This document shows positions 8,213-41,849 of a stretch of DNA of 64,000 nt, one piece after another; the stretch's first letter is position 1; every line of letters begins with the position of its first letter. This DNA comes from an uncultured Opitutaceae bacterium. Lineage in GTDB: Bacteria > Verrucomicrobiota > Verrucomicrobiia > Opitutales > Opitutaceae. Where the stretch lies: the NCBI GenBank assembly GCA_903916755.1, contig CAIWXW010000100.1, positions 2,026 to 66,025 on the forward strand. The letters run 5' to 3'. Under the pieces are notes generated by a model. The model searched no databases. It was not told the DNA's origin and saw nothing but the letters and a program-made list of their open reading frames with translations. The position numbers were made by a program, and so were the translations under genes.

Positions 8213-8369
8213 TCGTTGAGGCGGCGCCCGGTCAGACCCCGCGCCACCGGCAGAGTGTCATCGAAATCGAGCCGATCCGCCCTGTCAGCGCCTAATCCCG
8301 GTGATTTTAGCCAGCCCCCCCGCCGGGTATTTACTTCCGCCGGGCATCGGCTAATCGTGTCCTTTCGCC

Positions 8370-9032
8370 ATGACTTCCCGCCCGCCGACCATCGCGGTCA
8401 TCGACACCGGCATTTGCAACCTGCGCAGCGTGACCAAGGCCCTCGAGGCCGTGGGCGCGCAGCCGCTGGTCGTGCGGACTCCCGCCGAGCTGCAGGGCAT
8501 TGCGGCCGAGGGGCTGGTGCTGCCCGGGGTGGGGGCTTTGCGCGACTGCGTGGCCTCGCTGCGGACCAGCGGCTTCGCCGACACGGTGCGCGGCTGGATC
8601 GGCGAGGATCGCCCTTTCCTGGGGGTCTGCCTGGGCATGCAGGCGCTCTTCGAGCGCTCTGAGGAAGGCAACGTGGAGGGGCTGGGGGTCTTCGCCGGGC
8701 AGGTGCGCAAGTTTCGGCTGCCGCCGGGCTTCAAGATCCCCCACATGGGCTGGAATACGCTTCGGTTTCGCGACCCGGCCTCGCCGCTGGCCGCCGGCCT
8801 CGCGGGGACTGAATCCTTTTACTTCGTGCACAGCTTCTTCTGCGAGCCGGCGGACTCCGCGCTCGTCCTGGCCGAATGTGACTACGGCGGCTATTTTCCA
8901 GCCATCGTCGCCCGGGGCCGGGCCTTCGCCACCCAGTTTCACCCCGAAAAGAGCCAGGCCAACGGCCTGCGGATATATCGCAATTTCGCGGCGGTGGCGA
9001 CGGCCGGGACAACACCTGCAAAGGCCCGGTGA
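8370..9032 (+). CDS. hisH: Imidazole glycerol phosphate synthase, glutamine amidotransferase subunit
   Basis: Class-I GATase: IAVIDTGICN, catalytic GVCLGMQ, PHMGWN, FYFVHSF, QFHPEKS. Confidence 0.92.
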   Translation: MTSRPPTIAVIDTGICNLRSVTKALEAVGAQPLVVRTPAELQGIAAEGLVLPGVGALRDCVASLRTSGFADTVRGWIGEDRPFLGVCLGMQALFERSEEGNVEGLGVFAGQVRKFRLPPGFKIPHMGWNTLRFRDPASPLAAGLAGTESFYFVHSFFCEPADSALVLAECDYGGYFPAIVARGRAFATQFHPEKSQANGLRIYRNFAAVATAGTTPAKAR

Positions 9033-9116
9033 TCGGGGGCTTACGCTGCGGTTATATTGCCTTTCGCAGCCATCTTTGCTTTGCCAGTGGCCCTCTTTTA
9101 GCTTCGTTTAGCGGTC

Positions 9117-10415
<1,299 letters not shown>

Positions 10416-10431
10416 TCGCGGGGGCGAGCTC

Positions 10432-11358
10432 ATGCCGGCTGCTGGCGCCGATTCCGGAAGCCTCGTCGCCGGCCTCCGCGACCGGCTGCTGGCGGCGTTC
10501 TCGGGCGAGATCCACAGCCTTTATCTCCTGGGCAGCCGCGCCTTGGGCCGGGAGACGGCCGCCAGCGATTACGACCTGGCGATCCTGTTCCGTCACCCCG
10601 CTGACGCCGGGAAGCGGCAGGCAGTCGAACGATGGGCCGAGACGATCCGGCGCGCGGGCGAAGTCATGGTCGACACCACGGTCCTCGACCCGGGCGATCT
10701 GGCCGGGGGAGTCCGTCCCTACCTCAAGATCGGCCGGTGCCTGACGGGCGAGGACGTGCTGGGCGGCGCCCCGCTCCGGCCGGCGGACGAACTCGTGGCC
10801 TACTACGGGCATCTCGCCGTCTATTTCCTCTGGGCCGTGCGGGGCCGGCCGGCCGTGCTGCAGCATCCGCTGGCCTACCCGGCGGGCGGCGAGGAATTCC
10901 GGGGGTACGATCGTCAGGGGATCCGGGTGGGGGAAAACCAATATGTGCCGGGCTGCGCGCAGCTGGTGAACGATGTCTGCTCCCTCGCCAATTTTCGCAT
11001 GGCCCGCCTCGCGGGCGTCTTTTGCCCGAGCAAGAGCCTGACCGTCGCGACCTGGAGCCAGTGCCTGCCGGACGACCCCTGGCTGCCGCTCGTGCGGGAG
11101 GTCTATGAACTCGGCCGCACCCAGGGCCAGGGGCGCCTGCCGGACGCGCCGGCCGACCGGCGCCGGCTGGCGGAATGGTGCGGGGCGCTCCTGCCATTTG
11201 AAAACGAGGAGCTGACCGCCTGCCTCCTCGCGCTGCCGCGCTTCGCGGCGCTGCCCGATCCGGAACTGCGGCAGCGCACGCTCAGCATCGTGCGCGGCGT
11301 CACCTCCCGCGACCCGGCGGTGGTGGCGGCACTGGCGGCGGCGAAGGCGCTCCTGTGA
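10432..11358 (+). CDS. Nucleotidyltransferase-domain protein (pol-beta superfamily)
   Basis: ATG at 10432. The track start at 10174 overlaps gltA out of frame. NTase signature: LYLLGSRALGRETAASDYDLAILF (GS...DxD). Substrate unknown. Confidence 0.65.
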   Translation: MPAAGADSGSLVAGLRDRLLAAFSGEIHSLYLLGSRALGRETAASDYDLAILFRHPADAGKRQAVERWAETIRRAGEVMVDTTVLDPGDLAGGVRPYLKIGRCLTGEDVLGGAPLRPADELVAYYGHLAVYFLWAVRGRPAVLQHPLAYPAGGEEFRGYDRQGIRVGENQYVPGCAQLVNDVCSLANFRMARLAGVFCPSKSLTVATWSQCLPDDPWLPLVREVYELGRTQGQGRLPDAPADRRRLAEWCGALLPFENEELTACLLALPRFAALPDPELRQRTLSIVRGVTSRDPAVVAALAAAKALL

Positions 11359-25520: not shown

Positions 25521-27176
25521 ATGGCTGACGCCCCCTGGCCCGACGGGCTCGAGACCCCGCCCTCCTACTGGCGGCTGAACGCGCGCTGGCTCGCGCCCCT
25601 GGCGGTCTTCCTCTCCACCGCCATCCTGACGGTGCTGTCCTTCCCGCCCTATGCGGCGCCGGAATTCGCCTACGCCTTCGCCTCGCCGGCGATCTTTTGG
25701 GCGTTCTCGCGCCCTCCGCTCAAGGTCTTCGTCTGGACTCTCTTCGCCGCGCAGGCGGTGGCCTGGATCGTCATTCTTTGCTGGCTGCGCCACGTGACCT
25801 TCTTTGGCCTCTTCCTCCTCGGGCCCTTTGTCGGCGCATGGGTCGGCAGCTGGTACCTCGCGGTCTGGTGGACGATGCCGCGACTGCACGGGCGGCCGGC
25901 CCCGGTGCGCATGCTGGCCCAGCTCGGGCTGGCCGGCGCCTGGGTGCTGGTGGAGTGGACGCGCACCTGGCTCCTGAGCGGTTTTCCCTGGCTGCCGCTG
26001 GCGGCCAGCCAGTGGCAGCGGACCAGCATCCTGCAGATCGCCGCCTACACGGGCGCCTATGGCGTCTCCTTTGTCCTGATCGCGATGAATGTCGGGTTCG
26101 CGGCCTACGCCCACCGGCTGCTGGTCGAGGGCGAGCGCAATTTTCTGAAGCGGCGCAGCCCGGAGTTCCTGCTCGCGCTGTTCCTCCTCCTGGCCTGCCT
26201 CTCGATCCAGGTGCAGGAGACGATCAATCGCCGGCTTTTCAATGAATCGCTCGGCCGGATCGCGCTCGTCCAGCCCGACATTCCGCAGAGCGCGAAATGG
26301 GATCCCGCCGAGGCCCCGGGCATCCAGCGGATCCTCGAGCGGCTGACCCGGACGGCCGGCGCCAGCCGGCCCGACCTAATTCTCTGGCCCGAATCGGCCG
26401 CGCCGGGCGCCGTCAAGGGGGACCCGGAGATGCAGGCGTGGGTGGCCTCGCTCGCCAAGGAGACGAACGTCCCGCTGCTCATCGGGGCGAATGCCTTCGA
26501 GACCGACGCCAACGGCACCCGCTGGTACGATGCCGGCTTCGCGGTCACGCCCGACGGGGTGCAGCCGTCCTACTACGCCAAGCGGCATCTCGTGCCCTTC
26601 GGCGAATATGTCCCGCTCCGTCCGGTTCTCGGCTGGATGTCGAAATTCGTGCCGCTGCCGGACGACGCGAACCCGGGCCGGGATGCCGCGCCGCTTTTGA
26701 TCCGGCTGCCGCACGGGCCGACCGCCTTCGGAGTATTGATCTGCTATGAGGACATCTTCCCACAGCTGGCCCGCGACAGCGTCCTGTCCGGGTCCGACGT
26801 GCTGGCGGTCCTGACCAACGATGCCTGGTACGGCGAGGAGGGCGCCGCCTACCAGCACGCCGCCCACTCCGTCCTGCGGGCGGTCGAGACCCGCCGTCCC
26901 GTGCTGCGCAGCGGCAACGCCGGCTGGAGCGGCTGGATCGACGAGTTCGGCGGGATCCGGTCCACCCTCCAGGATGACCAGGGCAGCGTGTACCTGCGCG
27001 GGACCGGCTCGGTGAACGTTTCGCGCGACCGCCGTTGGGTCGGGCGGAAGAGCTTTTACGTGGAGCACGGCGACTGGTTTGTCCTGGCGAGCGCGGGCCT
27101 CGCGCTGCTGGGATTCGCGCTGTTGTTCCGGGTGCCCCCGACCGTGCCGGAACCCGGCGCCGGATTGCTGCGGTGA
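25521..27176 (+). CDS. lnt: Apolipoprotein N-acyltransferase
   Basis: Polytopic N-terminal domain plus a CN-hydrolase domain (LILWPESA, catalytic Cys in VLICYEDIF), and a C-terminal TM helix. Confidence 0.88.
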   Translation: MADAPWPDGLETPPSYWRLNARWLAPLAVFLSTAILTVLSFPPYAAPEFAYAFASPAIFWAFSRPPLKVFVWTLFAAQAVAWIVILCWLRHVTFFGLFLLGPFVGAWVGSWYLAVWWTMPRLHGRPAPVRMLAQLGLAGAWVLVEWTRTWLLSGFPWLPLAASQWQRTSILQIAAYTGAYGVSFVLIAMNVGFAAYAHRLLVEGERNFLKRRSPEFLLALFLLLACLSIQVQETINRRLFNESLGRIALVQPDIPQSAKWDPAEAPGIQRILERLTRTAGASRPDLILWPESAAPGAVKGDPEMQAWVASLAKETNVPLLIGANAFETDANGTRWYDAGFAVTPDGVQPSYYAKRHLVPFGEYVPLRPVLGWMSKFVPLPDDANPGRDAAPLLIRLPHGPTAFGVLICYEDIFPQLARDSVLSGSDVLAVLTNDAWYGEEGAAYQHAAHSVLRAVETRRPVLRSGNAGWSGWIDEFGGIRSTLQDDQGSVYLRGTGSVNVSRDRRWVGRKSFYVEHGDWFVLASAGLALLGFALLFRVPPTVPEPGAGLLR

Positions 27177-28225
27177 TGAGCTCCCGCGTCTCCGCCACCG
27201 ACCTGGTGACCTACGCCCGCGCCTTGCTGGCGGGCACGGGATTGGAGGCGGAAAAGGCGCAGGCCGTCGCCGAGGTCCTGGTGGAAGGCGATCTGCTGGG
27301 TCACACCACGCACGGCCTCCAGCTGCTCCCGGGTTACCTGACCGAGCTGGAGCAGGGCCGGATGGCCCGCGCCGGCTCGCCGAAGGTCCTGGCGGATTTT
27401 CCGGCGGCGGTCACCTGGGATGGCAACCGGCTCCCGGGCCCCTGGCTGGCGCGCGAGGCCCTCGCGCTGGCGGCAGTCCGCGCGCGCACCCAGGGCACCT
27501 GCACGGTGGTCATCCGGCGCAGCCATCACCTGGCCTGCCTGGCCGCCTACCTGCAGCCGATCGCGGAGCAGGGGCTGATGGTACTCCTTTCCTGCTCGGA
27601 TCCCTCCGCCGGGGGCGTCGCGCCGCACGGCGGCCGCAAGGCCATTTACACTCCGGATCCGCTGGCCGCCGCGTGGCCGACCGACCAGGGGCCGGTGATG
27701 CTCGACGTCTCGATGTCGATCACGACCAATGGACTCAGCAAGCGCCTGAAGGCGGAAGGCGGCCGGTTTCCCGGGGCCTGGGCGGTCGATGGCGGCGGCA
27801 ATCCCACCGACGATCCGGCGGCGCTCTTCGGGGAGAACCCGGGAGCCCTCCTGCCGCTGGGCGGAACCGATCACGGCCACAAGGGCTATGCGCTCGGGCT
27901 CCTGATCGAAGCGCTCACCGGCGGGCTCGCCGGCCACGGCCGCGCGGATCCCGCCGAGGGCTGGTCGGCGAATGTCTTCCTGCAGGTGCTCGATCCCGCC
28001 CTTTTCGGCACCCGGGATGATTTCATCCGGCAGACCTCCTGGCTGGCCGACGCCTGCCGGCGGAATCCGCCCCGGCCCGGCTTCGAGCGCGTGCGCCTGC
28101 CGGGCGAGGCGGGCCTGAAGCGCCGGGCGGACCAGCTGGCCCGCGGCATCGAACTCTACCCCGGCATCCTCGCGGCCCTCGCGCCCTGGGCCCGGAAATT
28201 CGGCGTTGTCGCGCCCGCCGCCTAG
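27176..28225 (+). CDS. Ldh_2-family (malate/L-lactate dehydrogenase type 2) NAD(P)H oxidoreductase, substrate unknown
   Basis: The ATG at 27176 overlaps the lnt stop (TGATG). Family hallmarks: LVEGDLLGHTTHGLQLLPGY and GGTDHGHKGYALGLLIE. Confidence 0.8.
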   Translation: MSSRVSATDLVTYARALLAGTGLEAEKAQAVAEVLVEGDLLGHTTHGLQLLPGYLTELEQGRMARAGSPKVLADFPAAVTWDGNRLPGPWLAREALALAAVRARTQGTCTVVIRRSHHLACLAAYLQPIAEQGLMVLLSCSDPSAGGVAPHGGRKAIYTPDPLAAAWPTDQGPVMLDVSMSITTNGLSKRLKAEGGRFPGAWAVDGGGNPTDDPAALFGENPGALLPLGGTDHGHKGYALGLLIEALTGGLAGHGRADPAEGWSANVFLQVLDPALFGTRDDFIRQTSWLADACRRNPPRPGFERVRLPGEAGLKRRADQLARGIELYPGILAALAPWARKFGVVAPAA

Positions 28226-28243: not shown

Positions 28244-29443
28244 ATGTCTCCCAAGCTCATTCGCCGCGCCGTCGAGGCGCTGGAAAAATTCAAGATTGAG
28301 ACGCCCTCCTGGGGCTTCGCCGACACCGGCACCCGCTTCGGCAAGTTTTTCCAGGACGCCGCCGCGATCGACGTGAACGACAAGCTGGCGGACGCCGGCC
28401 AGGTCCATCGGCTGACGGGCTGCTGCCCGACGGTCGCCGTGCATGTCCTCTGGGATTTCAAGAAGGGGGAGGATCCCAAGGCCGTCGCCCGCCTCGCCCG
28501 CAAGCACGGGGTCAGGATCGGCGCGATCAACCCCAACCTCTTCCAGGAGCAGTGCTACAAGTGGGGCTCCTTCGGCAACCAGGATGCCGCCATCCGCCGC
28601 CACGCGCTGCGCCACTGCTACGACTCGATCGCGATCGGGAAGGCGGTCGGCAGCGAATTCATCTCCCTCTGGTTCGCCGACGGCACGAGCTATCCGGGCC
28701 AGGAGAGCATCCGCGACCGCAAGCACCGCTTCGAGACCTGCCTGAAGGCCTGCCACGCCCGGCTGGCGCCAGGCCAGACGATGCTGGTCGAGTACAAGCC
28801 CTTCGAGCCGGCGTTTTACGCCACCGACATCGCCGACTGGGGCATGGCCTACGTGCTTTCGAAGAAAGCGGGCCCGCGCGCCAAGGTCCTCGTCGACACC
28901 GGCCACCACTACCAGGCCCAGAACATCGAGCAGATCGTGGCCTTTCTCCTCGATGAGAACATGCTCGGCGGGTTCCACTTCAACGACCGCCGGTACGCCG
29001 ACGACGACCTCACGCTGGGGTCGATCGATCCCTACCAGGTCTTCCGGATCTTCCACGAGATCCATGCCTTCGCCGCCGATCGCGGCGCGGCGCCGGACAT
29101 TGCCTACATGATCGACCAGTGCCACAACGAGAAGCCGAAGATCGAGGCGACGATCCAGACGGTGGTGATCGCGCAGGAGCTCTACGCCAAGGCGGCCCTC
29201 GTGAACCACGAGAAGCTGCGCCGCGCGCAGGCCCGCAACGACGTGGTCACGGCCGAGCTCGAGCTGAAAAAGGCGTTCTTCACCGATGTGGCCCCGGCCC
29301 TGGCCGCGTGGCGCCGGCGCCACGAGCTGCCGTCCGACCCGCTGGCGGAGCATCGCCGCAGCGGCTACGAGCGGAGGGCCGCCACCGAGCGGCGGGCCCG
29401 GCGCCAGGCATTGGGCCTCGTGCAGGGTGGCAGCTTCGCCTGA
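28244..29443 (+). CDS. L-rhamnose-isomerase-like sugar isomerase (xylose-isomerase-fold TIM barrel, RhaI type)
   Basis: 399 aa. The FKIETPSWGFADTGTRFGKF opening, VDTGHH and HFNDRRYADDDL resemble the Rhizobium/Pseudomonas stutzeri-type L-rhamnose isomerases. Substrate not determinable. Confidence 0.7.
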   Translation: MSPKLIRRAVEALEKFKIETPSWGFADTGTRFGKFFQDAAAIDVNDKLADAGQVHRLTGCCPTVAVHVLWDFKKGEDPKAVARLARKHGVRIGAINPNLFQEQCYKWGSFGNQDAAIRRHALRHCYDSIAIGKAVGSEFISLWFADGTSYPGQESIRDRKHRFETCLKACHARLAPGQTMLVEYKPFEPAFYATDIADWGMAYVLSKKAGPRAKVLVDTGHHYQAQNIEQIVAFLLDENMLGGFHFNDRRYADDDLTLGSIDPYQVFRIFHEIHAFAADRGAAPDIAYMIDQCHNEKPKIEATIQTVVIAQELYAKAALVNHEKLRRAQARNDVVTAELELKKAFFTDVAPALAAWRRRHELPSDPLAEHRRSGYERRAATERRARRQALGLVQGGSFA

Positions 29444-29456
29444 GGCGAGGCTGCGG

Positions 29457-30677
29457 CTAAAACGCGCCGGGCTTCCAGGCCAGGACTCCCGCCAGGGCGG
29501 CTTTGACCGCCGGCGGGGTCTCGGGCGTCTGCTGGAGATATCCCAGGTAATCGCGCACGAGCTTGTGCTGGGCTGCGTTGAGGCGCAGCGACCAAAGCGT
29601 GGCATTGAGGAGAGCGCTCTTCATGACCTCCGGTGGCGGCGTGGCCGGCGGATGGGCGAGCTGGCGAAATGCGTCGAGCTGCCCGGCATAGGGCAGGTCG
29701 TGGCCCACGACCTCGACCATGGCTTCGATCGGGCCAAAGTACCCTCCGGCGTAGAAGCGGCCCCAGAGCATGTCGAGCTGGCTGCTGGTTTCCGGGGGTC
29801 CCGCATGGACCGGCAGTTCGCGGCTGGCCGCGGCGACCGCCTTCCTTGAACTAAAAATGAGATCAGCGGTCATGGCCGGGTTGATCCGCTGCGCATGGGC
29901 GAACACCAGCGCCAGCAGGTGGCGCTCATCCCCCTCGGACGAGAGGAACCACTGCTTGAACCAGGGCAGAAGCCAGGGGTTGTCGACCAGGACCTGCCCG
30001 TAGAAGCCCAGGATCGTGCCCAGGCCATCGACGCCCTTCGCCAGGAGAGCGGGATTGCGGCTGAGGGCTTCCAGCGCGGGCAGCGCGAACCGCGGCTCGG
30101 GTCGCAGATAGTAGCGCGCGATCCATTCGTTCGCGTCGAAATTTTCCGGAAGGGGCAGGGGGCGATTCGAATTCGCGACCTCGACCGAGACGGTCTTCGT
30201 CCGGCTCTGGCCCGAGACGCCGTCATGCACGGTGACCTCGAACTGATAGGCGCCGAAGGGATCGGTGAGCGCGGTGGCGAAGGCCTGCAGCTTGCGGGGG
30301 AAAAGCAGGGTGTGGGGCTGGACCTTGAGCTGTGCGGCCACGACATTGGCGGTCGAGGCCTGGACGCGCCCGTCGGGATAGCGCACCGTCAGGTCATAGG
30401 AGACGCTGGCCCGGTCGGCTGCATCCGTCGCGAAACGGGAAACCACGAGCAGGAGATCCACCCGCTGGCCGGGTGCGATCTCCTTGGTGCGCGCGAGCAC
30501 CGGGGTGACGCCGGGAGGGGTGTGATAGTAGATATCCGTGTGGCCGTACTGGACAGAGGTCAGGACATCGAAGTCGAGGATGGCCGCGGCGGGCGCGTTT
30601 TCGGCCGCGGCGCCGATCGACGCGAGCGACACGAAACCGGTGAGCGCGAGGCCCAGGAGGAAGCGAAAGCGCTGCAT
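29457..30677 (-). CDS. Secreted hypothetical two-domain protein (406 aa)
   Basis: ATG at 30677 gives the signal peptide MQRFRFLLGLALTGFVSLASIGAAA/EN. The upstream 208 codons of the track ORF overlap the SDR gene out of frame. No known motif. Confidence 0.65.
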   Translation of the reverse strand: MQRFRFLLGLALTGFVSLASIGAAAENAPAAAILDFDVLTSVQYGHTDIYYHTPPGVTPVLARTKEIAPGQRVDLLLVVSRFATDAADRASVSYDLTVRYPDGRVQASTANVVAAQLKVQPHTLLFPRKLQAFATALTDPFGAYQFEVTVHDGVSGQSRTKTVSVEVANSNRPLPLPENFDANEWIARYYLRPEPRFALPALEALSRNPALLAKGVDGLGTILGFYGQVLVDNPWLLPWFKQWFLSSEGDERHLLALVFAHAQRINPAMTADLIFSSRKAVAAASRELPVHAGPPETSSQLDMLWGRFYAGGYFGPIEAMVEVVGHDLPYAGQLDAFRQLAHPPATPPPEVMKSALLNATLWSLRLNAAQHKLVRDYLGYLQQTPETPPAVKAALAGVLAWKPGAF

Positions 30678-30697: not shown

Positions 30698-31480
30698 TCA
30701 GGCCATGTAGCTGCCACCGTTGAGGTCGAGGGTGGCGCCGTTCATGAACCCGTCGAATTCGCTGGCGAAATACACCGCGGCGCGGGCCACGTCGTCGGTC
30801 GTGCCGGCGCGTCCCAGGGGAATGCCGGCGATGGCGGCGCGCGCCGCCTCCGGCGTGGTGTGGGTGGCGTGAAACTGCGAGCCGAGGATGAATCCGGGAG
30901 CCAGCGCGTTGACCCGGATGCCCTTGGGCCCGAGTTCGAGGGCCAGCCCGCGCGTGAGGGCGAGAATGGCGCCCTTGGCCGTCGCATAGGCGAGGGATCC
31001 CGCGCTGCCGCCCCGCCGCCCCGCGATCGAGGACAGGTTGACGACGCTGGCGCCGCCGCGCGTCCTGGCCGCGGTCTCGAGATGGGGGGCGGCGGCGCGC
31101 GTGATCCGCCGGGCGCTGCCCAGATTGAGCGCCATGACCTCCGCCCAGTACGCGTCGTCGGCGTCGGCCAGCGCCTCGCGGCGGACGAGCGAGCCGGCAT
31201 TGTTGATGAGCACATCCAGGCCGCCGAGGAACGCGGCCGCCTCGGCCACGATCCGGACGCACTCGGCGGGTTCGGTCAGGTCGGCGGACGAAACCTGGCA
31301 ACGGCGATCGCGGGCCTCCGCTTCGCGCCGAAGCTTACCCGCGGCGTCCGCGCTCCCGTGATAATGCACAAAGACATCGCAGCCGGCGTCGAGCAGCTGG
31401 CGGCTGATGGCCAGGCCAATGCCCTGGGCTCCAGCAGTTACCAAGGCGCGTTTTCCGGCCAATTTGGAGTGAACAAGCAT
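30698..31480 (-). CDS. Short-chain dehydrogenase/reductase (classical SDR)
   Basis: ATG at 31480 gives MLVHSKLAGKRALVTAGAQGIGLA (TGxxxGxG). NNAG, the YATAKGA catalytic Y-x3-K and PGFI are present. Confidence 0.88.
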   Translation of the reverse strand: MLVHSKLAGKRALVTAGAQGIGLAISRQLLDAGCDVFVHYHGSADAAGKLRREAEARDRRCQVSSADLTEPAECVRIVAEAAAFLGGLDVLINNAGSLVRREALADADDAYWAEVMALNLGSARRITRAAAPHLETAARTRGGASVVNLSSIAGRRGGSAGSLAYATAKGAILALTRGLALELGPKGIRVNALAPGFILGSQFHATHTTPEAARAAIAGIPLGRAGTTDDVARAAVYFASEFDGFMNGATLDLNGGSYMA

Positions 31481-31859
31481 CGCATTGAAGATGGGTCGGT
31501 TGCGGTTCTGAAGCAAGAAGCTGAGGCCGCAATCAAGATTGGCACCAAAGAGCATCGCCATCTTCTGCAGGCCATGGGAAGTGGCTTTACCGCCAAGCTC
31601 TTTCGTCATCACGGTTCGCAAGCCGTGCTGCTTCCCGTCGGTTTTGAGATGCCCGGGGAGGGAGTGAAGATTTCTCGAGTGACGGGCGGAGTCTGGCTGA
31701 CGCCGATCCTTTCGGATTTCGAACACCGACGAGCGACTTTTTTCGCCCTGGCGGGCTGCGATCCCGGAATCGAGGACGTGCCGCCGCACCAGGACCCGGA
31801 TCTCCCCCGGGAATTTTAGGATCAAACCTTCGCCGGTGCTTTGGCGCCGGGCCGCCTCT

Positions 31860-33323
31860 TCAGGCGCGGCCCAACTCCCGCAGCGCATCCCCGGCGGCGC
31901 TCAGATTCTCCGGCTTCATCTCGACGTAGTTGCGCGAAAGGATGATTCCGGTCGCGCCGCCCGCGAAGACGGCCCGCACGGCCGCCTTCACCCCTTCGGG
32001 CGTGCAGTGGCTCGTGCCGGCGGGGACGGGGATGTCGATGTCGATGCCCGGCCAGACCTGCGTCTTGCTTCCGGCGAGGCCATCGACCGCGCGCCGGGTC
32101 TCCCGCTTGACGTAGTCCGCCGAGAAGCCGGTGGTCACCAGCTTGTCGTACGGCGCTTCCTTCAGGTCGAGCTCATGGTAGAGGAGTTCCGCGACTTGGG
32201 CCGGCGGAAGATCGCCGTAGGGTCCGGCGAGCCCGGAGCTGGCCCCGGCGTGAAACCGTTCGCCCGCGCAATTGTTGTACACGGCCGGGCGCACGAAGTC
32301 GGAGAAATGCTGGTACACGCCGTAGTCCTCCTCGGCGCGCAGGAAGGGATTGAAGGTCACGGTTTGCCACACGTGCCAGCCCATCGGCAGCGCCGGATTG
32401 GCGGCCTTCATCCGCCGGTAGAGCTCCGCCTGAAGGTCGTGGCGGCCGCGCACCCAGAGGTTCTCCCAGGCGATCAGCTCCGGATAGTTGAGCAGCACCC
32501 GCCAGAAGGAGGTGAAGTAGCCGTCGACCGGGCGGCGGTTGGCCCTGCGTTCGCGCATCAGCTTTTCCACGGCGAAGAACCCCTGCCGCGCCCGCTCGAC
32601 ATCGATTCCATCGGCCCGCGCCTGGCGCTGGCAATATTCGCAGAAGCAGGTGGGCCGGCTGACCTCGCCCAGGTTCAGCATGTTGAGGAAGCCGCTGCCG
32701 CGCTCGGCGCCCCACATCATGCCGCCGATGTCGTAGGAGCGGGCATAGTCCTCGACCACGCCGCCCAGCCAGGCCCGGTAGGCGGGATGCCGCTTGCACG
32801 GGCCGGAGGGATGGCCGGTCACGCGCCGGCCGTGGGCGTCGATCTCGTACATGTCCGTCCAGCGGGGCATCCCCGCCGGGCAATGATTGTCCTCGAGGAC
32901 GAAGGGGAACACCTTGATGCCATGCTTGCGCGCGGCGGTGATCGCCCGGTCCAGCACGTCGACGTCGCCGTGTTCCGTGGCGCGCATGTCCTCGTAGGTG
33001 AGGGTGGCGCCCTGATAGTGCTCCATGTGCGGGATGGCGTAGTTGCCGCCCCGGAAACCCGGCTGATGGTCGAGGCCGGCGCGGTGCTCCTCGTGAGTAT
33101 AAATGAAGGGGAACAGAGCGGTGACGCCGCCCCGCTCCTTCATGTCGCCCAGGATCCGGTCCAGGTCGGGTCCGGCCAGGATGGCCACGGATATCGGCAT
33201 CGCCACCATGGTTTCCTGGCGGGTGGGAGCCGGCGCCGGGGTCTGCGCGGGCAGGAGCGAGGAGCCGGACAGCGTGGCGCCCGCGCCTGCAGCCGTCATC
33301 TTGATGAAGTCGCGTCGGTTCAT
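31860..33323 (-). CDS. TAT-signal TIM-barrel glycoside-hydrolase-like protein with GH42-like Cys4 signature (paralog 1)
   Basis: ATG at 33323 gives the twin-arginine signal MNRRDFIKMTAAGAGA. Contains GPCKRHPAYR...WGAERGSG...CFCEYCQ. About 70% identical by eye to paralog 2. The fold and function assignment is inference. Confidence 0.8.
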   Translation of the reverse strand: MNRRDFIKMTAAGAGATLSGSSLLPAQTPAPAPTRQETMVAMPISVAILAGPDLDRILGDMKERGGVTALFPFIYTHEEHRAGLDHQPGFRGGNYAIPHMEHYQGATLTYEDMRATEHGDVDVLDRAITAARKHGIKVFPFVLEDNHCPAGMPRWTDMYEIDAHGRRVTGHPSGPCKRHPAYRAWLGGVVEDYARSYDIGGMMWGAERGSGFLNMLNLGEVSRPTCFCEYCQRQARADGIDVERARQGFFAVEKLMRERRANRRPVDGYFTSFWRVLLNYPELIAWENLWVRGRHDLQAELYRRMKAANPALPMGWHVWQTVTFNPFLRAEEDYGVYQHFSDFVRPAVYNNCAGERFHAGASSGLAGPYGDLPPAQVAELLYHELDLKEAPYDKLVTTGFSADYVKRETRRAVDGLAGSKTQVWPGIDIDIPVPAGTSHCTPEGVKAAVRAVFAGGATGIILSRNYVEMKPENLSAAGDALRELGRA

Positions 33324-33333
33324 AGGGGTAAGA

Positions 33334-34806
33334 TCAGGCGAGGCCGAGCTCGCGGAGGGCATCGCCCGCGGCGCTCAGATTCTCGGGTTTCATTTCAACG
33401 TAGTTGCGCGAGAGGATAATGCCGGTTCCGCCGCCCTGGAACACGCCCTTGACGGCCGCCTTCACGCCTTCCGGGGTGCAGCGGCTGACGCCCGCGGGCA
33501 CGGGGACATCGATGTCGATGCCCGGCCAGACATCGACGGGGCGGGGGCCGCCGGCCACGCCTTCCAGGGCGCGGCGCGTCTCGCGCTCCACATAGCGGGC
33601 GCTAAGCCCGGTCTGGCTGACTTTCCCGTAGGGCGGCTCGTCATACCCCTGCATCCGGTACATGAGGGCCAGGACCTCGTCGGCCGGCAGGTCGCCGAAG
33701 ACCCCCACGTGGGCGGCGGCGGCGAAGGCGTGGTAACGCTCGCCCGCGACATTGTTGTAGACGGCCGGCCGGATGAAGTCGGAGTACTGCTTGAGGAGGC
33801 CATAGTCCTCCTCGGCCCGCTGGAATGGGCTGAAGGAGACATTCTGCCAGATGTGCCATCCGATCGGCAGCGCGGGGTTGGCGGCCTTCATCCGCTGGTA
33901 GAGCTCCGCCTGCATCCCGTGCCGGCCGCGCACCCAGAGGTTTTCCCACGCGATCAGTTCGGGATAATTGAGCAGGATCCGCCAGAACGTGGTGAAATGC
34001 CCGTCGGGCATCCGCTCCCCGGCCTTGCTCGCGCGCATGAATTTCTCGATCTCGATGAAGCCGCGGCGGGCGCGCTCGACGTCGATCCCGGTCTCCTTCG
34101 CGTTTTTCTGGCAGAACTCGCAGAAGCAGGTGGCCCGGCTGCCATCGCCTAGCCCGCTCATCGAAAGGCCGGCGGCGTTGAGGAATCCGCTCTGGCGCTC
34201 GGCGCCCCACATGAGGCCGCCGATCTCGTACGAGCGGGCGTAGTCCTCCACCAGGCCGCCGACCAGGGCGCGGTAATAGGGGTTGTGCTTGCACGGCAGG
34301 CTGGAGATGCGCCCGTGAAAATCGACCTCGGCCAGCTTTTTCCAGTTCGGGACCGCCTCGGGACGATGGTTGTCCTCGAGTACGAAGGGAAAGACCTTGA
34401 TGCCGTGCCGCCGGGCCGCGGGGATCACCTTCGCCAGCACGTCGACGTCGCCGAAGTCTGTCGCGCGCATGTCGGCATAGGTGAGGATCGAGCCCTGATA
34501 GTATTCCATGTGCGGCGTGGCGTAGTTGCCGCCGCGGAAGCCCGGGGTGTGCTCTGGCACGCCAGCGCGATGCTCCTCGTGGGAATACATGAAGGGAAAG
34601 AGCGCGTTCACGCCGGCCCGGTCCTTCATGTCGCCGAAGATCCGGTCCAGGTCGCCGGTGACCAGCGGAGCGACGCAGATCGGCATTGCGATCATCACCT
34701 CGCGCTTCGGCGCCGCCGCGGGAGTCTGCGCGGACAGGAGGCGGGCGGTCGCCAGGGTAGCGACGGCGCCGGTCGCGGTCGTGGTGATGAAGTCGCGGCG
34801 GTTCAT
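33334..34806 (-). CDS. TAT-signal GH42-like Cys4 protein (paralog 2)
   Basis: MNRRDFITTTATGAV twin-arginine signal. Contains LPCKHNPYYR...WGAERQSG...CFCEFCQ. The start overlaps the paralog 3 stop (ATGA). Confidence 0.8.
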   Translation of the reverse strand: MNRRDFITTTATGAVATLATARLLSAQTPAAAPKREVMIAMPICVAPLVTGDLDRIFGDMKDRAGVNALFPFMYSHEEHRAGVPEHTPGFRGGNYATPHMEYYQGSILTYADMRATDFGDVDVLAKVIPAARRHGIKVFPFVLEDNHRPEAVPNWKKLAEVDFHGRISSLPCKHNPYYRALVGGLVEDYARSYEIGGLMWGAERQSGFLNAAGLSMSGLGDGSRATCFCEFCQKNAKETGIDVERARRGFIEIEKFMRASKAGERMPDGHFTTFWRILLNYPELIAWENLWVRGRHGMQAELYQRMKAANPALPIGWHIWQNVSFSPFQRAEEDYGLLKQYSDFIRPAVYNNVAGERYHAFAAAAHVGVFGDLPADEVLALMYRMQGYDEPPYGKVSQTGLSARYVERETRRALEGVAGGPRPVDVWPGIDIDVPVPAGVSRCTPEGVKAAVKGVFQGGGTGIILSRNYVEMKPENLSAAGDALRELGLA

Positions 34807-36299
34807 GCGGGGGTAGGGGGCGTGAGACCCAATTCGCGCACGGCGCTGCCGGCCGCGTTCAGGTTCTCGGGTTTCATTTCAAGAAAGTTGCGCGAGAGCA
34901 GGACCCCCTGGCCGCCGCCGCGGAAGACCGCCTTGACGGTTTCCCGCACGCTTTCCGGGGTGCAATGGCTGGAGCCGGGCGCCACCGGCACGTCGATGTC
35001 GATGCCGGGCCAGACCTGGGTCGCGCTGCCGGCGACCCCGGTCACCGCCCGGCGGGTTTCCCGCTCGACGTAATCGGCGGAGAGTCCCGTGGCGGCCACC
35101 CGACCGTAGGGCGCCTCCCCGCGGTAATTCAGCTGGCGGTAGAGGACCTCGAGCATTTCGTCGGGCGGCCCGTCACCCAGGATGTTCTGGTGCACGCTCT
35201 GCATGAAGCTATGGGTCCGTTCCCCGGCGCAGTTGCTGTACAGGACCGGGCGGATGAAGTCGGAGAACGCCGTCATTTCGGCGTAGTTTTCCTCGGCGCG
35301 GTGAAACGGGCTGAAGGAGACGTTGTGCCAGATGTGCCAGCCGACCGGGAGGGTGGGCTTGATCGACTTGATCCGCCGGTAGAGCTCGCCCTGCATCTCG
35401 TGCCGGCTGGTGACCCAGAGGTTCTCCCAGGCGAGCAGCTCGGGATAATTCAGCAGGATCCGCCAGAAGGCCGTGAAATAGCCGTCCCGCGGGCGATGGC
35501 CGGCCCGGCCCGCGCGCACGTACTTTTCGATTTCACCGAAGCCGAGGCGGGCGCGCTCGACGTCGATGCCCTTGGCCCGCCCCTTTTTCTGGCAGAATTC
35601 GCAGAAGCAGGTCGCCTTGCCGGGATCGGCCTTGGCGCCGTTGTGGTACGCACCCAGGGCATTGAACAGGCCGCCCTGCCGCTCCGATCCCCACATCAGG
35701 CCGTCGATGTCATAGGAGCGGGTGTAATCCTCGACCAGGCCGAGCAGGTAGCCGCGGTAGTATGGGTTGTTGTTGCATGGTCCGGAAGGATGGCGGTCGG
35801 TGCGGCGGCCATGGAAATCGATCTCGTAGAGCTGTTCCCAGTGCGGGATCTGCGGCCGGCGATTGTCCTCGATGATCCAGGCGAACGTCTTGATGCCGCG
35901 GGGCTTGCTGGCGGCGATGGCGAGGGCCAGCAGATCCTTGTCCCCGAATTCGGGCCCGCGCATGTCTTCGTACGTCAGGATCGTGTCCTTGTAGTACTGC
36001 ATGTGCGGAATCGCATAGTTGCCGCCGCGGAAGCCCGGCGGGCTCACGCCCGCCCGCTCTTCGATGTGCGAATAGATGAAGGGAAAGAACGCGTTGGCGC
36101 CGGTGCGCTTTTGCACGTCGTCGAGCAGCTGGCCCAGATTCGGCCGAGAGAGGGGCTCGGCGGCGGTGGCCACGCCGATCAGGGGGGCGCTGGGGGCGGC
36201 GGGGGCTGCCGGGGCGAGGGCCCCCCGGAGGAGCTTGCCTCCGCCCATGGCGGAGCCGGCACTGAGGGCGGTCAACTTGACGAAATCGCGGCGGTTCAT
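34803..36299 (-). CDS. TAT-signal GH42-like Cys4 protein (paralog 3)
   Basis: ATG at 36299 gives MNRRDFVKLTALSAGSA. Contains GPCNNNPYYR...WGSERQGG...CFCEFCQ. More diverged than paralogs 1 and 2. Confidence 0.8.
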   Translation of the reverse strand: MNRRDFVKLTALSAGSAMGGGKLLRGALAPAAPAAPSAPLIGVATAAEPLSRPNLGQLLDDVQKRTGANAFFPFIYSHIEERAGVSPPGFRGGNYAIPHMQYYKDTILTYEDMRGPEFGDKDLLALAIAASKPRGIKTFAWIIEDNRRPQIPHWEQLYEIDFHGRRTDRHPSGPCNNNPYYRGYLLGLVEDYTRSYDIDGLMWGSERQGGLFNALGAYHNGAKADPGKATCFCEFCQKKGRAKGIDVERARLGFGEIEKYVRAGRAGHRPRDGYFTAFWRILLNYPELLAWENLWVTSRHEMQGELYRRIKSIKPTLPVGWHIWHNVSFSPFHRAEENYAEMTAFSDFIRPVLYSNCAGERTHSFMQSVHQNILGDGPPDEMLEVLYRQLNYRGEAPYGRVAATGLSADYVERETRRAVTGVAGSATQVWPGIDIDVPVAPGSSHCTPESVRETVKAVFRGGGQGVLLSRNFLEMKPENLNAAGSAVRELGLTPPTPA

Positions 36300-36433
36300 G
36301 ACGGGGTTGGATCTATTTTGCCCAAAAGGGGCGGGGCACGGCGCAGGTGGAGCCTCGGGCCCGCGACGGCCCGCTGTCACGACAAAAGCCTTGGCCTTTC
36401 CCGCCGGCGGGCCTTCGCTGGGAAGGCATTTCC

Positions 36434-36784
36434 ATGACTGACGCACCCAACCCGGCTTTGGCTGCGGCTTTTTCCAAAATTAATTTGGACGGGGCGAAGC
36501 GGCATGCCTTCCTCTGCGTGGGTCCGGACTGCTGCGCCCCCGAGGCGGGCCTGGCGACCTGGGACGTCCTCAAGCGGACGCTGGGCCGGACCGGCGCGTC
36601 CGTCCTGCGCACCAAGGCGGCGTGCCTCCGCATCTGCCAAGGGGGCCCCTGGCTGGTCGTCTACCCGGAGGGTGTCTGGTACGGCGGGGTGACGCCGGAG
36701 CGCTGCGAGCGCATCGTGACCGAGCATCTGGTCGGCGGGCGCCCGGTGTCGGAATGGGTGATCCGGGCGCATCCTTTGGCCTAA
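36434..36784 (+). CDS. Thioredoxin-like [2Fe-2S] ferredoxin
   Basis: ATG at 36434. Cys pattern C-x4-C (FLCVGPDCC) and C-x3-C ([11 protein letters not shown]), plus [10 protein letters not shown], typical of this ferredoxin family. No signal peptide. Confidence 0.75.
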
Positions 36785-36808: not shown

Positions 36809-38053
36809 ATGCCCTCCCCGACTTCCCCTTCGTTTAGCCGCCGCGACTTCGTCAAGCTGACCGGCACCGCCGCCATCGCCTCCGCCCTGGTGCCCAAGCT
36901 GCGCGCCGCTCCGGCCGCCCGTCCGTTCGAGGTTTCCGCCAGCCTTTACGCCTGGGATCTTCACGATGAGGGCGTCGAGCGGGTGCTGGACAACCTGCAG
37001 GAGATGGCGGCCGTCAATTCCGTCTACCTGATTGGCGTGATGCATCCCGAGCGCCGTCCGCTTGGCGGCGGCGTCTTTCCCCATAACCCGGTGCGCCAGA
37101 CCTGGACGGCCGAGGACGCCCGGTGCTACTGGCACCCGGACAGCGCCCGCTACGGCCGCATCCATCCGCGGCTTTCGGACCACGCCTGGCTCAACCAGAC
37201 GGATTGGCTGCGGGTCCTGGTCGACGCCGCGGGCAAGCGCGGGCTGCGGGTGGGCGTCGAAAATTCCCATGCGCTGGTGGACAAGCAGCGCGCGGAAGGC
37301 GAGTTCTCGGACTGCGTCGAACGCAACGTGCATGGGGAGATCACCCATGTCCGCACCTGGCTGCGGCCGCTGTGCCCGAATCATCCCGATGTGAGCGCCT
37401 ACGCCGGCAATCTCTTCGGGGACGCGGTGGTGAACTACGGGCTCGATTATGTGACCTCGGCCATTGTCTCCTTCGATGAGGGCGGTCCGGGCCGCGGCGC
37501 CTGTTTCTGCGCGTCCTGCCACCGCGTCGCCGCGGCCGAGGGTCTCGATTTCGCGCGGATCCAGCAGGTGCTCCTGGCCAACCCGGCGGCGGAGCCGGAG
37601 CGGACCACCTGGCAGGATTTCCGCCAGCGGTCGGCGGCGCGTTTTTATGCGGGAATCCACGAGAAGCTCCATGCCCTTAAGCCGGGCGTCGACGTGCGCT
37701 ACAGCCAGCACATGGCCAATCCCGCCGACTGGGGGATCAAGCTCAGCGTCCTGCAGCCGAATCTCGATTCGATCCGCATCCAGGAATACAGCGAGCAGAC
37801 CGGCAATCCGGCGTTGATGGCGGGCAAGCGGGCCATGCTCGCGGGCGCGCGGGCGGAGCTGGGGCCGGATTTTCCCGTGCACTCCGCCATCGCGGTGCGG
37901 CTCAAGGCCACCCCGGAACTGATTCGCGAGGGCATTCGCATCGCGGTCGAGACCGGGATGAACGGGATCACCCTCGGCCACTATGATGGCGCGAGCTTCC
38001 CGATGCTCCACGCGGTCCGCGATGGACTCGCGGACGCGGGAATCCGGAGCTAG
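36809..38053 (+). CDS. TAT-signal GH42-like Cys4 protein (distant paralog 4)
   Basis: Twin-arginine signal SFSRRDFVKLTGTAAIA. Contains LCPNHPDVSAY...SFDEGG...CFCASCH. Starts 25 nt downstream of the ferredoxin gene. Confidence 0.75.
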   Translation: MPSPTSPSFSRRDFVKLTGTAAIASALVPKLRAAPAARPFEVSASLYAWDLHDEGVERVLDNLQEMAAVNSVYLIGVMHPERRPLGGGVFPHNPVRQTWTAEDARCYWHPDSARYGRIHPRLSDHAWLNQTDWLRVLVDAAGKRGLRVGVENSHALVDKQRAEGEFSDCVERNVHGEITHVRTWLRPLCPNHPDVSAYAGNLFGDAVVNYGLDYVTSAIVSFDEGGPGRGACFCASCHRVAAAEGLDFARIQQVLLANPAAEPERTTWQDFRQRSAARFYAGIHEKLHALKPGVDVRYSQHMANPADWGIKLSVLQPNLDSIRIQEYSEQTGNPALMAGKRAMLAGARAELGPDFPVHSAIAVRLKATPELIREGIRIAVETGMNGITLGHYDGASFPMLHAVRDGLADAGIRS

Positions 38054-38083: not shown

Positions 38084-40762
<2,679 letters not shown>

Positions 40763-40772
40763 GGAAGGCGGG

Positions 40773-41849
40773 TCAGCTGGCGATCACCAGGGGCTCGAGC
40801 CCGCTCAGCCGCAGCAGGGGGGCGGCCGCCGGGATCGGGCGGGGCTTGAAGCCCCGGACCGCCTGCGCGATCGCGGCGATGTGCGGCGGCGTTGAGCCGC
40901 AGCAGCCGCCCACGAGGTTGAGCCAGCCGTCGGCCGCAAACTCGCCGAGCACCCCCGCCATGTCCGCGGGGGATTCATCGTAGCCGCCGAAGGCGTTGGG
41001 CAGGCCGGCGTTGGGATAGCAGGTGGTGTAGCAGGACGCCAGGCGCGACAGCGTCTCGACGTACGGGCGCATCTGCCGGCCGCCCAGGGCGCAGTTGACC
41101 CCGACCGAAAACGGCCGGGCGTGGGCGATGCTGGCGTAAAAGGCCTCGATCGTCTGCCCGGACAGCGTCCGGCCGGAGGCGTCCGTGATCGTCACGGAGA
41201 TCATCACCGGCAGCCGGAAGCCGACTTCGTCGAATAGCGCGGCGAGGGCGAACAGGGCCGCCTTGCAGTTGAGGGTGTCGAAGATCGTTTCGATCAGCAG
41301 GGCGTCGACGCCGGCGGCGATCAGGGCCCGGGCCTGTTCGGTATAGGCGGCGACCACCTGGTCCCACGAGACCGCGCGATAGTCCGGCCGATTGACGTCG
41401 GGGGACATGGACAAGGTCCGGTTGAGCGGACCGATGGCTCCCGCCACGAAGCAGCGCCGGCCGGGCGTGGCCGCCTCCGCCTTCTGCGCGGCGCGGCGCG
41501 CACAGCCCACCGCCGCCGTGTTGAGCTCGGTCACCAGCGCCTCAAGATGATAGTCCGCCTGCGAGATGGCGTTCGAATTGAAGGTGTTGGTCTCGACGAT
41601 GTCCGCGCCCGCCGCGAAATACTGCCCGTGAATGTCCTCGATGATGTCGGGACGCACGATCGACAGCAGGTCGTTGTTGCCCAAAAGGTCCTGCACCGGG
41701 CGGGGAAAGCGCGTGCCGCGGAAATCGGCCTCCTTCAGCTGGAAGCCCTGGATCATCGTGCCCATGGCGCCGTCGAGGACCGCGATGCGCTGCTGGAACA
41801 GCGCGCGGAGGGGGCCAAAGGAGGGTGATTCGGGCGGTAGGCTGCTCAT
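40773..41849 (-). CDS. metH: Methionine synthase, N-terminal polypeptide (homocysteine S-methyltransferase module)
   Basis: 358 aa. [19 protein letters not shown] and the zinc ligands in GVNCALG and GGCCGSTP. Ends at ...[12 protein letters not shown], the canonical inter-module linker. Confidence 0.92.

Follow-up and report, generated by a model that had tools for sequence, protein, structure and literature searches.

What do three adjacent genes encode when their products closely resemble one another and match no named protein family? This question was raised by a 64,000-nt contig stretch of an uncultured Opitutaceae bacterium, henceforth referred to as the window, within which all positions are counted. 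Three minus-strand genes in the window encode proteins A, B and C, which are three diverged paralogs of a large, unnamed, single-domain (beta/alpha)8-barrel family. The reading moderately favoured here takes A, B and C to be probable glycosidases of an undescribed family, belonging to the GH42 / GH151-GHL6 / GHL10 superfamily (GH, glycoside hydrolase) and carrying a structural Zn(Cys)4 site. A more divergent relative on the opposite strand is referred to as the short type, as distinct from the long type represented by A, B and C.

Sequence relationships and family extent

Protein B shares 69% identity with C and 57–59% identity with A. This similarity is far beyond chance, with homologue E-values effectively 0. 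The sequence blocks FRGGNYA, F[PA][FW][VI][LI]EDN, WG[AS]ER, NYPEL[IL]AWENLWV, WPGIDID and SRN[YF][VL]EMKPENL were found in all three proteins, and the shared blocks listed in an earlier, preliminary description of this DNA were likewise all located in A, B and C. Every residue that is invariant in a 41-sequence alignment of their clade is kept by all three proteins, so that no copy appears to be decaying.

Searches of A, B and C against Pfam-A returned only a twin-arginine translocation (Tat) signal and, for A, a GHL6 match of 15 bits (E 0.031, cutoff 35), while NCBIfam returned nothing besides its Tat signal model. PDB sequences searched by phmmer with B and by profiles, among them the 41-sequence profile, gave nothing significant. 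The sole glycosidase in the profile-to-PDB search was the GH151 fucosidase 6tvk, at a non-significant E of 0.57. A direct family assignment was rejected since Pfam and NCBIfam yielded only Tat-signal and sub-threshold GHL6/GHL10 matches. Literature searches for a characterised family member found none. The preliminary description had recognised no characterised family, and the Pfam, NCBIfam and PDB sequence searches likewise assigned the proteins to none; the two outcomes that it had named as counting against its proposal, a hit to a characterised family and loss of the Cys and Glu positions across homologues, were not seen.

More than 900 close homologues were identified, all of them unnamed or annotated as ‘hypothetical’ and none with a precomputed Pfam domain. 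An exhaustive hidden Markov model search of 1.84 billion cluster representatives returned 1287 clusters at E <= 1e-3, of which 316 reached E <= 1e-30, and this sets the size of the family at no fewer than 1287 clusters at 50% identity. Within GTDB species representatives, 474 loci were found. The best 80 of these 474 were all in metagenome-assembled genomes (MAGs), of Verrucomicrobiota (Opitutaceae, Limisphaerales, Verrucomicrobiia) and Planctomycetota (Tepidisphaeraceae, Phycisphaerales), together with a few bins under other labels, Acidobacteriota among them; many of the best loci came from soil, peat or bog assemblies. Among diverged members, 22 of 84 matched GHL6 and 16 of 84 matched GHL10 at E <= 0.01, with the best matches at about 1e-6 (GHL6 1.6e-6). 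Additionally, some relatives of the short type carry precomputed GHL10, GHL6 or GH42 matches.

Predicted fold and structural neighbours

The structure of B was predicted with AlphaFold2 from the 41-sequence alignment, giving a predicted local distance difference test score (pLDDT) of 89 and a predicted template modelling score of 0.87, with disorder confined to residues 1–31. The model is a (beta/alpha)8 barrel with strands at approximately residues 38–43, 68–75, 141–144, 198–202, 315–319, 344–348, 429–431 and 462–466, and with long helical inserts after strand 4 (~243–309) and strand 6 (~351–417). The best Foldseek matches of B in the PDB were the GH151 enzyme 6tvk (E 4.7e-9), PgaB-C/GH153, the GH42 enzyme 1kwg (E 7.8e-8), Cwp19/GHL10 and a GH164 beta-mannosidase, and the top 50 matches were all carbohydrate-active barrels or close kin. 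Because the best of these neighbours reached template modelling (TM) scores of ~0.45–0.5 at 10–14% identity, the fold neighbourhood is clear and there is no close solved relative.

The three proteins had initially been described as GH42-like TIM barrels, and the model and the Foldseek search do place B in the structural neighbourhood of GH42. The resemblance to GH42 thus stands; its place as the closest family does not, given that GH151/GHL6 and GHL10/Cwp19/PgaB score equally well or better.

The Cys4 site and candidate catalytic residues

Residue conservation was assessed in 84 full-length homologues that are 25–47% identical to B, with a mean column identity of 27%, and is given in B numbering. 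Glu203 and Phe228 were found in 84/84 sequences, Cys172, Cys227 and Cys229 in 83/84 each, and Cys232 in 80/84. Other highly conserved residues were Asp343 (83/84), Arg357 (81/84), Lys/Arg346 (79/84), Arg467, Arg330 and Tyr350 (77/84 each), Arg204 and Glu471 (73/84 each), His318 (71/84) and Glu/Asp144 after strand 3 (70/84). The position of Asp433 was occupied by Asp in 62, Glu in 3, Asn in 9 and Gly in 6 of the 84. An alignment of homologues had been proposed at the outset as a check on the Cys and Glu positions, and these counts show both to be conserved. The residue positions collected in Table 1 confirm the four cysteines, in the pattern C...C[FY]CxxC, that had been reported for each of the three proteins. 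A Glu upstream of CxCxxC is also present as reported, although its distance to the cluster is 19 residues in C, 24 in B and 25 in A rather than the 15–20 originally stated.

In GH42, the four Cys of the cluster bind a structural Zn, and the cluster is not universal in that family (PMC8573354). A profile of the short-type family aligned CPNHPxxREYA...C[F]CxxC onto SCPNSPTYRKYA...CYCDNC of the GH42 protein 3tts (E 0.031), and the long-type and short-type families aligned with each other Cys-for-Cys (hhalign probability 99.9%, E 2.7e-34). Both alignments uphold the likeness to the GH42 zinc site that had been drawn from the Cys4 pattern. The resemblance is judged to be real and most likely reflects common ancestry of this sub-structure. 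A radical S-adenosylmethionine motif or other known iron-sulphur (Fe-S) motif was considered and rejected because the pattern is not CxxxCxxC; it is CxCxxC plus a distal Cys in a GH42 context.

The end of strand 4 is the acid/base position in clan GH-A enzymes, and Glu203 directly follows strand 4 (198–202) in the model of B. As second carboxylate, the natural candidate would be Asp433 at the strand 7 exit. Its role is uncertain because Asn occurs there in 9 and Gly in 6 of the 84 homologues. Glu144, after strand 3, is an alternative candidate; in the short-type family, the position aligned with it is an invariant Glu. With regard to the two-carboxylate pattern of clan GH-A, the model and alignment together give an invariant strand-4 Glu and a strand-7 residue that is Asp or Glu in 65/84.

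The following scheme is proposed on this basis. Each protein would acquire its fold in the cytoplasm, built around a structural metal ion, most likely Zn2+, whose ligands would be a single Cys following strand 3 together with the C[FY]CxxC loop that follows strand 4, as in GH42. The folded protein would then be exported through the Tat pathway, since folding and metal uptake are proposed to occur in the cytoplasm. In the periplasm it would hydrolyse a glycosidic bond in an oligosaccharide or glycoside, with the invariant strand-4 Glu (Glu203 in B) acting as general acid or acid/base and with Asp433 probably, or alternatively Glu144, as the second catalytic carboxylate. The three copies would most likely differ in substrate or linkage preference; the segment that varies most among A, B and C is the 19–25-residue loop from the Glu to the Cys cluster. 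What we infer here for A, B and C thus covers the identity of the metal, the hydrolytic activity, the roles of the residues and the substrate.

Several observations weigh against a glycosidase function. The TM scores to known glycosidases are only ~0.45–0.5 at 10–14% identity, and every family model stays below its curated cutoff. In place of Asn-Glu, the hallmark of clan GH-A, the family has [AS]-E-R, and the Met-Glu nucleophile of GH42 is likewise missing. The replacement of the Asn-Glu dyad by [AS]-E had been noted in the preliminary description and was found again as WG[AS]ER in A, B and C. Asp433, being Asn or Gly in 15/84 homologues, may not be an essential nucleophile. In the non-significant alignment to 6tvk (E 0.57), the nucleophile Asp of GH151 (FLD-IVGER) falls on Gly201 of B (MWG-AER), a position that is Gly in 62/84 homologues. 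The clade represented in the window has also lost two residues that are kept elsewhere in the family, a Gln at the strand 1 end and a Glu belonging to a ‘DEG’ motif; this loss points to a change in specificity. Finally, the exported clade has a heterogeneous set of gene neighbours, most of them with housekeeping roles.

The missing GH-A motifs could also mean that A, B and C are not glycosidases at all and are instead sugar or uronate isomerases, epimerases, esterases, lyases or non-catalytic binders in which the GH-like fold is only ancestral. The conserved Arg and Lys residues (R204, R276, R330, K346, R357, R412, R467) would suit an anionic ligand, and neighbouring genes for UxaC, a rhamnose-isomerase-like protein, a short-chain dehydrogenase/reductase (SDR) and an aldo-keto reductase encode proteins that act on free sugars. 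This explanation is nevertheless considered unlikely, as the significant structural neighbours shown are all glycosidases or glycosidase-like domains, the invariant Glu occupies the canonical strand-4 acid/base position, and the pairing of family genes with genes for glycoside transporters and glycosidase-like proteins fits glycoside cleavage.

Twin-arginine signals and export

The sequence MNRRDF[IV][KT], followed by an Ala/Gly/Thr-rich hydrophobic stretch, begins all three proteins. For C (20.9 bits) and the short type (17.0 bits), the NCBIfam model TIGR01409 exceeded its cutoff of 16.7 bits; B stayed below it, and A gave no match despite the same motif. In the model of B, residues 1–31 have a pLDDT below 50, as expected of a signal peptide. 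By motif and hydrophobic region, and in C also by model match, A, B and C qualify as predicted Tat substrates, in line with the twin-arginine start that had been described for each of them.

An N-terminal extension is present in about 29 of the 84 diverged members, each with a twin-arginine-type signal (RR, in one case KR). About 55 of the 84 (~65%) begin directly at strand 1 without a signal peptide, and a plain Sec signal was found in none of the 84. Because of this distribution, the family is predicted to be mainly cytoplasmic, with Tat as the route of those members that are exported. A periplasmic character intrinsic to the family, as implied by the preliminary description, does not agree with the signal-free majority. 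Its suggestion that Tat export suits the loading of metal in the cytoplasm is consistent with the Tat-only pattern among exported members. Tat would probably be used because the Zn(Cys)4 barrel is folded before export or forms an oligomer; the enzymes of GH42 and GH151 are oligomers.

The short-type paralog and the ferredoxin gene

A tblastn search of the window with 84 family members as queries located one divergent relative, the short-type gene, and no further long-type copy. A short-type gene adjoins the long-type gene or genes in every related Opitutaceae locus examined, and in those relatives a small ORF (open reading frame) precedes it on its strand. The short type belongs to its own large sister family, with 554 matches at E <= 1e-3. 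Its model has a pLDDT of 91.8, and Foldseek matched it to Cwp19 (E 1.8e-11, TM 0.58), GH42, PgaB and GH35. Unlike those of the long type, the invariant residues of the short-type family (E41, H52-D53-E54, H79-x-E81-x-R83, E151-x-S153-H154, R364, Y392-D393) are rich in His, Glu and Asp, and no invariant acid was found at the strand 4 exit in that family, which suggests that the short type has a different active site from the long type.

A gene for a thioredoxin-like [2Fe-2S] ferredoxin lies between the long-type and short-type genes and is divergent from the direction of A-B-C transcription. Its product is akin to the Aquifex ferredoxin Fd4, 1f37 (phmmer E 1.7e-13), and scored below the cutoffs of the NCBIfam 2Fe-2S ferredoxin models. 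A homologue occupies the same position in the related locus L007, and ORFs of similar size are present there in L008 and L009. No ferredoxin gene was found beside the family homologues examined outside Opitutaceae, for which reason its presence is taken as lineage-specific, and a functional link to the barrel family is uncertain.

The embedded ferredoxin gene bears on the nature of the metal in the Cys4 site. Were the four Cys to bind an Fe-S cluster or a redox-active metal, A, B and C would be Tat-exported redox or lyase-type enzymes that depend on the ferredoxin for maturation or electron transfer. Tat-only export is typical of cofactor-containing redox proteins, the ferredoxin gene sits between the short- and long-type genes with counterparts in related loci, and the four Cys are near-invariant, a stricter conservation than in GH42, where the cluster is not universal (PMC8573354). 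Yet CPNxPxYR ... C[FY]CxxC, the motif with its flanking residues, matches the zinc site of GH42 in alignment, the Foldseek matches shown include no redox or radical-enzyme fold, and the cytoplasmic relatives sit in sugar-catabolic operons. The ferredoxin is also absent next to family members outside Opitutaceae and, having no signal peptide, would stay in the cytoplasm. An Fe-S or redox role is accordingly regarded as improbable. A form of it in which the Fe-S or redox metal is needed for catalysis, making the proteins a new class of cofactor-dependent carbohydrate-active barrel enzyme, would explain both the Tat-only export and the ferredoxin gene embedded in the Opitutaceae locus, and is considered very improbable. 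A structural Zn site therefore remains the preferred assignment.

Gene layout and features of the locus

The three ORFs run in the same direction, with full extents of 34803–36446, 33334–34806 and 31860–33362. When the sequence was read directly, the stop of A and the start of B were found to share ATGA (...GCATGAACCGCCGC), and the stop codon of B, TGA, was found to be followed by 10 nt, TCTTACCCCT, and then by ATGAACCGACGC. Three genes of 487, 490 and 498 aa in one direction, with a 10-nt gap and an ATGA overlap, had been described before, and both the coordinates and the junction letters agree. In public gene calls for an identical contig, C starts from an upstream ATG at 33362, inside the 3' end of B, and is 500 aa long. 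The putative MNRRDF start is preferred for C because A and B have the same start. Public Opitutaceae-like MAG contigs encode a protein with 100% identity to B, and the closest named relatives of B are Opitutaceae proteins. The G+C content of the window is ~68%. All features are listed in Table 1.

Table 1 Features of the window discussed in the text, with positions counted in the window.
Feature	Position	Strand	Details
Paralog A	34803-36299	-	498 aa, start set at MNRRDF
Paralog A, landmark residues			MNRRDFVK, Glu144, Cys175, Glu206, C231-F-C233-E-F-C236, WPGIDID 430-436, SRNF 469
Paralog B	33334-34806	-	490 aa; copy used for structure modelling
Paralog C	31860-33323	-	487 aa, start set at MNRRDF
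Predicted twin-arginine signal peptide of B	34729-34806	-	~residues 1-26, MNRRDFITTTATGAVATLATARLLSA; motif read, Pfam TAT_signal and TIGR01409 searches
Predicted signal segment of A	~36219-36299	-	
Predicted signal segment of C	~33246-33323	-	
Cys4 of A	35592-35609 and 35775-35777	-	C231, C233, C236 and C175; predicted metal site
Cys4 of B	34111-34128 and 34291-34293	-	C227-F-C229-E-F-C232 and Cys172; predicted metal site
Cys4 of C	32631-32648 and 32796-32798	-	C226, C228, C231 and C176; predicted metal site
Glu206 of A	35682-35684	-	equivalent of Glu203 of B
Glu203 of B	34198-34200	-	in WGAER, directly after barrel strand 4; candidate general acid/base
Glu207 of C	32703-32705	-	equivalent of Glu203 of B
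WPGIDID of B	33508-33528	-	residues 427-433, strand 7 and its exit; Asp433 candidate second carboxylate
Short-type paralog	36809-38053	+	414 aa, 28% identity, Tat signal, CFCASC
Thioredoxin-like [2Fe-2S] ferredoxin	36437-36784	+	115 aa, no signal peptide, 24 nt upstream of short type
L-rhamnose-isomerase-like sugar isomerase	28244-29443	+	syntenic in Opitutaceae
Ldh_2 family dehydrogenase	27035-28225	+	syntenic in Opitutaceae
Inverted repeat after C	31840-31875	-	G+C-rich
SDR ORF	30698-31888	-	396 aa in public records
Gene downstream of SDR gene	29457-30677	-	406 aa
Split methionine synthase	38084-41849	-	358 aa and 892 aa

A G+C-rich inverted repeat (GGGCCGCGCC TGAAGA GGCGGCCC) lies directly after the stop codon of C; it is without a T tail and was missed by a simple terminator scan. 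The SDR domain of the following ORF begins at residue 146 of the public record. A start near 31480, giving 260 aa, is more likely than the 396-aa call, and with this start C and the SDR gene would be separated by ~380 nt of apparently non-coding sequence. The 406-aa protein encoded downstream of the SDR gene begins with a hydrophobic, signal-like segment and was matched by neither Pfam nor NCBIfam; in L009, this variable slot holds a different gene, for a 597-aa protein of no known kind. Methionine synthase is split into an S-methyl_trans protein and a larger protein with pterin-binding, B12-binding and activation domains, and the same split was seen in related Opitutaceae loci.

History of the array and genomic context

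The related Opitutaceae loci are syntenic with the window, in the order MetH, short-type gene, opposite-strand long-type gene or genes, variable genes, rhamnose-isomerase-like gene, Ldh_2, Lnt and SecA. The number of long-type copies is one in L007, two in L009, L010 and L050, at least two in L008, and three in the window. The history of the array was read from a neighbour-joining tree. There, A clusters with the copies that come first in L008, L009, L010 and L050, as well as with one copy of L011. B pairs with the second L008 copy, the two being joined by the only copy of L007, and C clusters with the second copies present in L010 and L050. Sequences of other Verrucomicrobiota and Planctomycetota stand between the A-type and the B/C clades. 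On the evidence of this tree, the array is reconstructed as an old pair, A versus B/C, with a later duplication of B/C, that is, as two events of different age. A recent triplication was rejected, as other verrucomicrobial and planctomycetal clades lie between A and B/C. The term ‘tandem triplication’ used in the preliminary description therefore holds for the presence of three tandem paralogs; a single event does not fit, with two events in the tree and a copy number of one to three in relatives. Tandem or multiple family copies were present in 9/161 loci of several lineages. Tandem pairs were seen to recur independently in L092, L104, L129 (three copies), L132, L140, L010, L050 and L011.

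In the exported clade, all-against-all clustering of ORFs revealed no conserved neighbour, the most frequent one being present at 11 of 79 GTDB loci. The recurrent neighbours represent housekeeping synteny, with ClpB, LpxA, a ThiF-family protein, MarC and an aldo-keto reductase, and four individual homologues examined outside the Opitutaceae synteny were all stand-alone genes. The ‘system’ envisaged in the preliminary description thus finds no conserved partner across the 79 loci. By Pfam counts, the immediate same-strand neighbours in this clade include a pectinesterase at 2 loci, GH88 at 1 and GH9 at 1.

The wider family has a more telling neighbourhood. In L092, an MFS_2 glycoside-type transporter gene is followed directly by two tandem cytoplasmic family genes (6454–11000). 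A GHL6/Glyco_hydro_42M protein of ~730 aa is encoded directly upstream of a family gene in 7–10 of 82 mostly metagenomic loci, some of which are near-identical in layout, so that counts of neighbours overstate the independent observations. This partner, which has a ...GLER..CYCDYC motif of its own, is the most frequent immediate operon partner in metagenome contigs; it lies upstream in L134, L136, L142, L162, L169 and L171 and downstream in L164 and L168. The arrangement suggests that the family barrel and the GHL6/Glyco_hydro_42M barrel act on one substrate. The glucuronate isomerase UxaC is encoded near a family gene in 3–7 loci, directly upstream in four. Other recurring neighbours are Gfo/Idh/MocA proteins, galactokinase, sulfatase, sugar-binding SBP_bac_1 proteins and TonB-type outer-membrane proteins. 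The operon neighbours in distant relatives point to sugar catabolism. A gene for an AP_endonuc_2 barrel was observed beside a distant family member in L091.

As for the substrate, a uronate-containing or pectic compound is weakly hinted at by the large number of conserved basic residues and by the neighbouring UxaC, pectinesterase and GH88 genes. The rhamnose-isomerase-like neighbour is compatible with pectic or rhamnose-rich glycans. It reaches 503 bits with TIGR02635, under the cutoff of 531, and carries little weight because it is convergent with the array and part of the conserved synteny.

A different kind of substrate would be expected if A, B and C were envelope-polymer hydrolases acting on glycans of the N-acetylglucosamine type, such as denuded peptidoglycan or an exopolysaccharide resembling poly-N-acetylglucosamine (PNAG). 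Glu203 would then serve as a single acid in a substrate-assisted or lytic reaction, as in Cwp19/DigH and PgaB-C/GH153; DigH, a GHL10 protein, is a hydrolase of envelope glycans. PgaB-C and Cwp19 are among the best structural matches of both the long and the short type, GHL10 was matched below threshold, the family has one invariant carboxylate and no invariant second one, and the proteins of the window are predicted from their Tat motif to be periplasmic. The distribution of the family tells against such a role: ~65% of members are cytoplasmic, these are paired with sugar importers, UxaC and GHL6/GH42M genes and not with cell-wall genes, and no cell-division or exopolysaccharide genes flank the array. 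An envelope function is thus held to be distinctly unlikely, and cleavage of an oligosaccharide or glycoside remains the preferred role.

Significance

If active glycosidases, A, B and C would found a new glycoside hydrolase family, which, with its non-canonical set of catalytic motifs, could fill an unassigned step of glycan turnover in soil. For the routing of some metal-containing hydrolases through Tat, the locus is also a clean test case, given that the same fold is signal-free in most relatives. The practical value is moderate, as uncharacterised GH-like barrel families are common and nothing contradicts current understanding. The size of the family, its non-canonical motifs and its strict use of Tat when exported make the locus a reasonable target for expression and screening.

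Comparison with known systems

Like other periplasmic enzymes that are exported by Tat with a cofactor or metal, the proteins have an N-terminal [ST/N]-R-R-x-F-[LIV]-K motif with a hydrophobic region, and Tat is the only export route in the family. Unlike the redox enzymes among them, no redox cofactor domain is detectable in this family.

The likeness to GH42 (PF02449; 1kwg, 3tts) comprises the catalytic (beta/alpha)8 barrel (matched by Foldseek at E 7.8e-8 with B and at 2.7e-10 with the short type), the Cys after strand 3 in a CPNxPxYR-like context with C[FY]CxxC after strand 4, the Glu at the strand 4 exit, and a Tyr after strand 6 (Tyr350). The GH42-type cluster C...CxCxxC is present in the sequences of 80–83 of 84 homologues, its metal site being predicted. 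The differences include an identity of 10–14% with a TM of ~0.47, a Glu-to-Cys spacing of 19–25 residues as opposed to 5–9 in GH42, the long helical inserts after strands 4 and 6, and the absence of a C-terminal domain. PF02449 gave no match at E <= 1 for A, B, C or the short type, although a few short-type relatives carry precomputed matches. The catalytic motifs of GH42 are N-E-Y and M-E (PMC8573354). N-E-Y is absent here, W-G-[AS]-E-R being found in its place; the residue preceding the Glu is Ser or Ala in 46/84 homologues, and Asn is not among the four commonest. M-E is absent on strand 7, which has W-P-G-I-D-I-D in these proteins and the consensus G-I-[GD]-x-D-[IV]-P in the family. The trimerisation domain PF08532 was not matched either, the single-domain proteins of 487–498 aa being modelled as one barrel with helical inserts.

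GH151/GHL6 (PF14871; 6tvk, ALfuk2) provided the best Foldseek match of B, and the weak alignment to 6tvk pairs G-E-R followed by CxCxxC. GHL6, a domain reported for the GH151 enzyme Mfuc3 (PMC4723247), is also the most frequent sub-threshold Pfam match in the family. The gathering score of PF14871, 35 bits, was not reached, with 15 bits for A and no match for B and C. In ALfuk2, the nucleophile is Asp154 at the end of strand 4 and the acid/base is Glu235 at the end of strand 6 (PMC10154630). In B, strand 6 (344–348) is followed by the conserved Tyr350 and Asn/Asp352, and no conserved Glu is found there. Unlike A, B and C, GH151 enzymes have three domains and 660–730 aa, and their active site is completed by a neighbouring subunit.

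GHL10 (PF02638; Cwp19 of C. difficile, 5oq3) and PgaB-C (GH153, 4p7n) are likewise single-domain exported barrels, of ~350–400 residues, and are the top structural matches of the short type and among the top ones for B. The gathering score of PF02638, 27.9 bits, was not reached by the short type (17.9 bits), and A, B and C gave no match. Peptidoglycan and PNAG, the substrates of these enzymes, are ill-suited to the cytoplasmic majority of the present family. With the Cys4 cluster of GH42 as the one clear match among the family criteria compared, A, B and C are set outside GH42, GH151/GHL6 and GHL10 as a family-level variant in a known superfamily.

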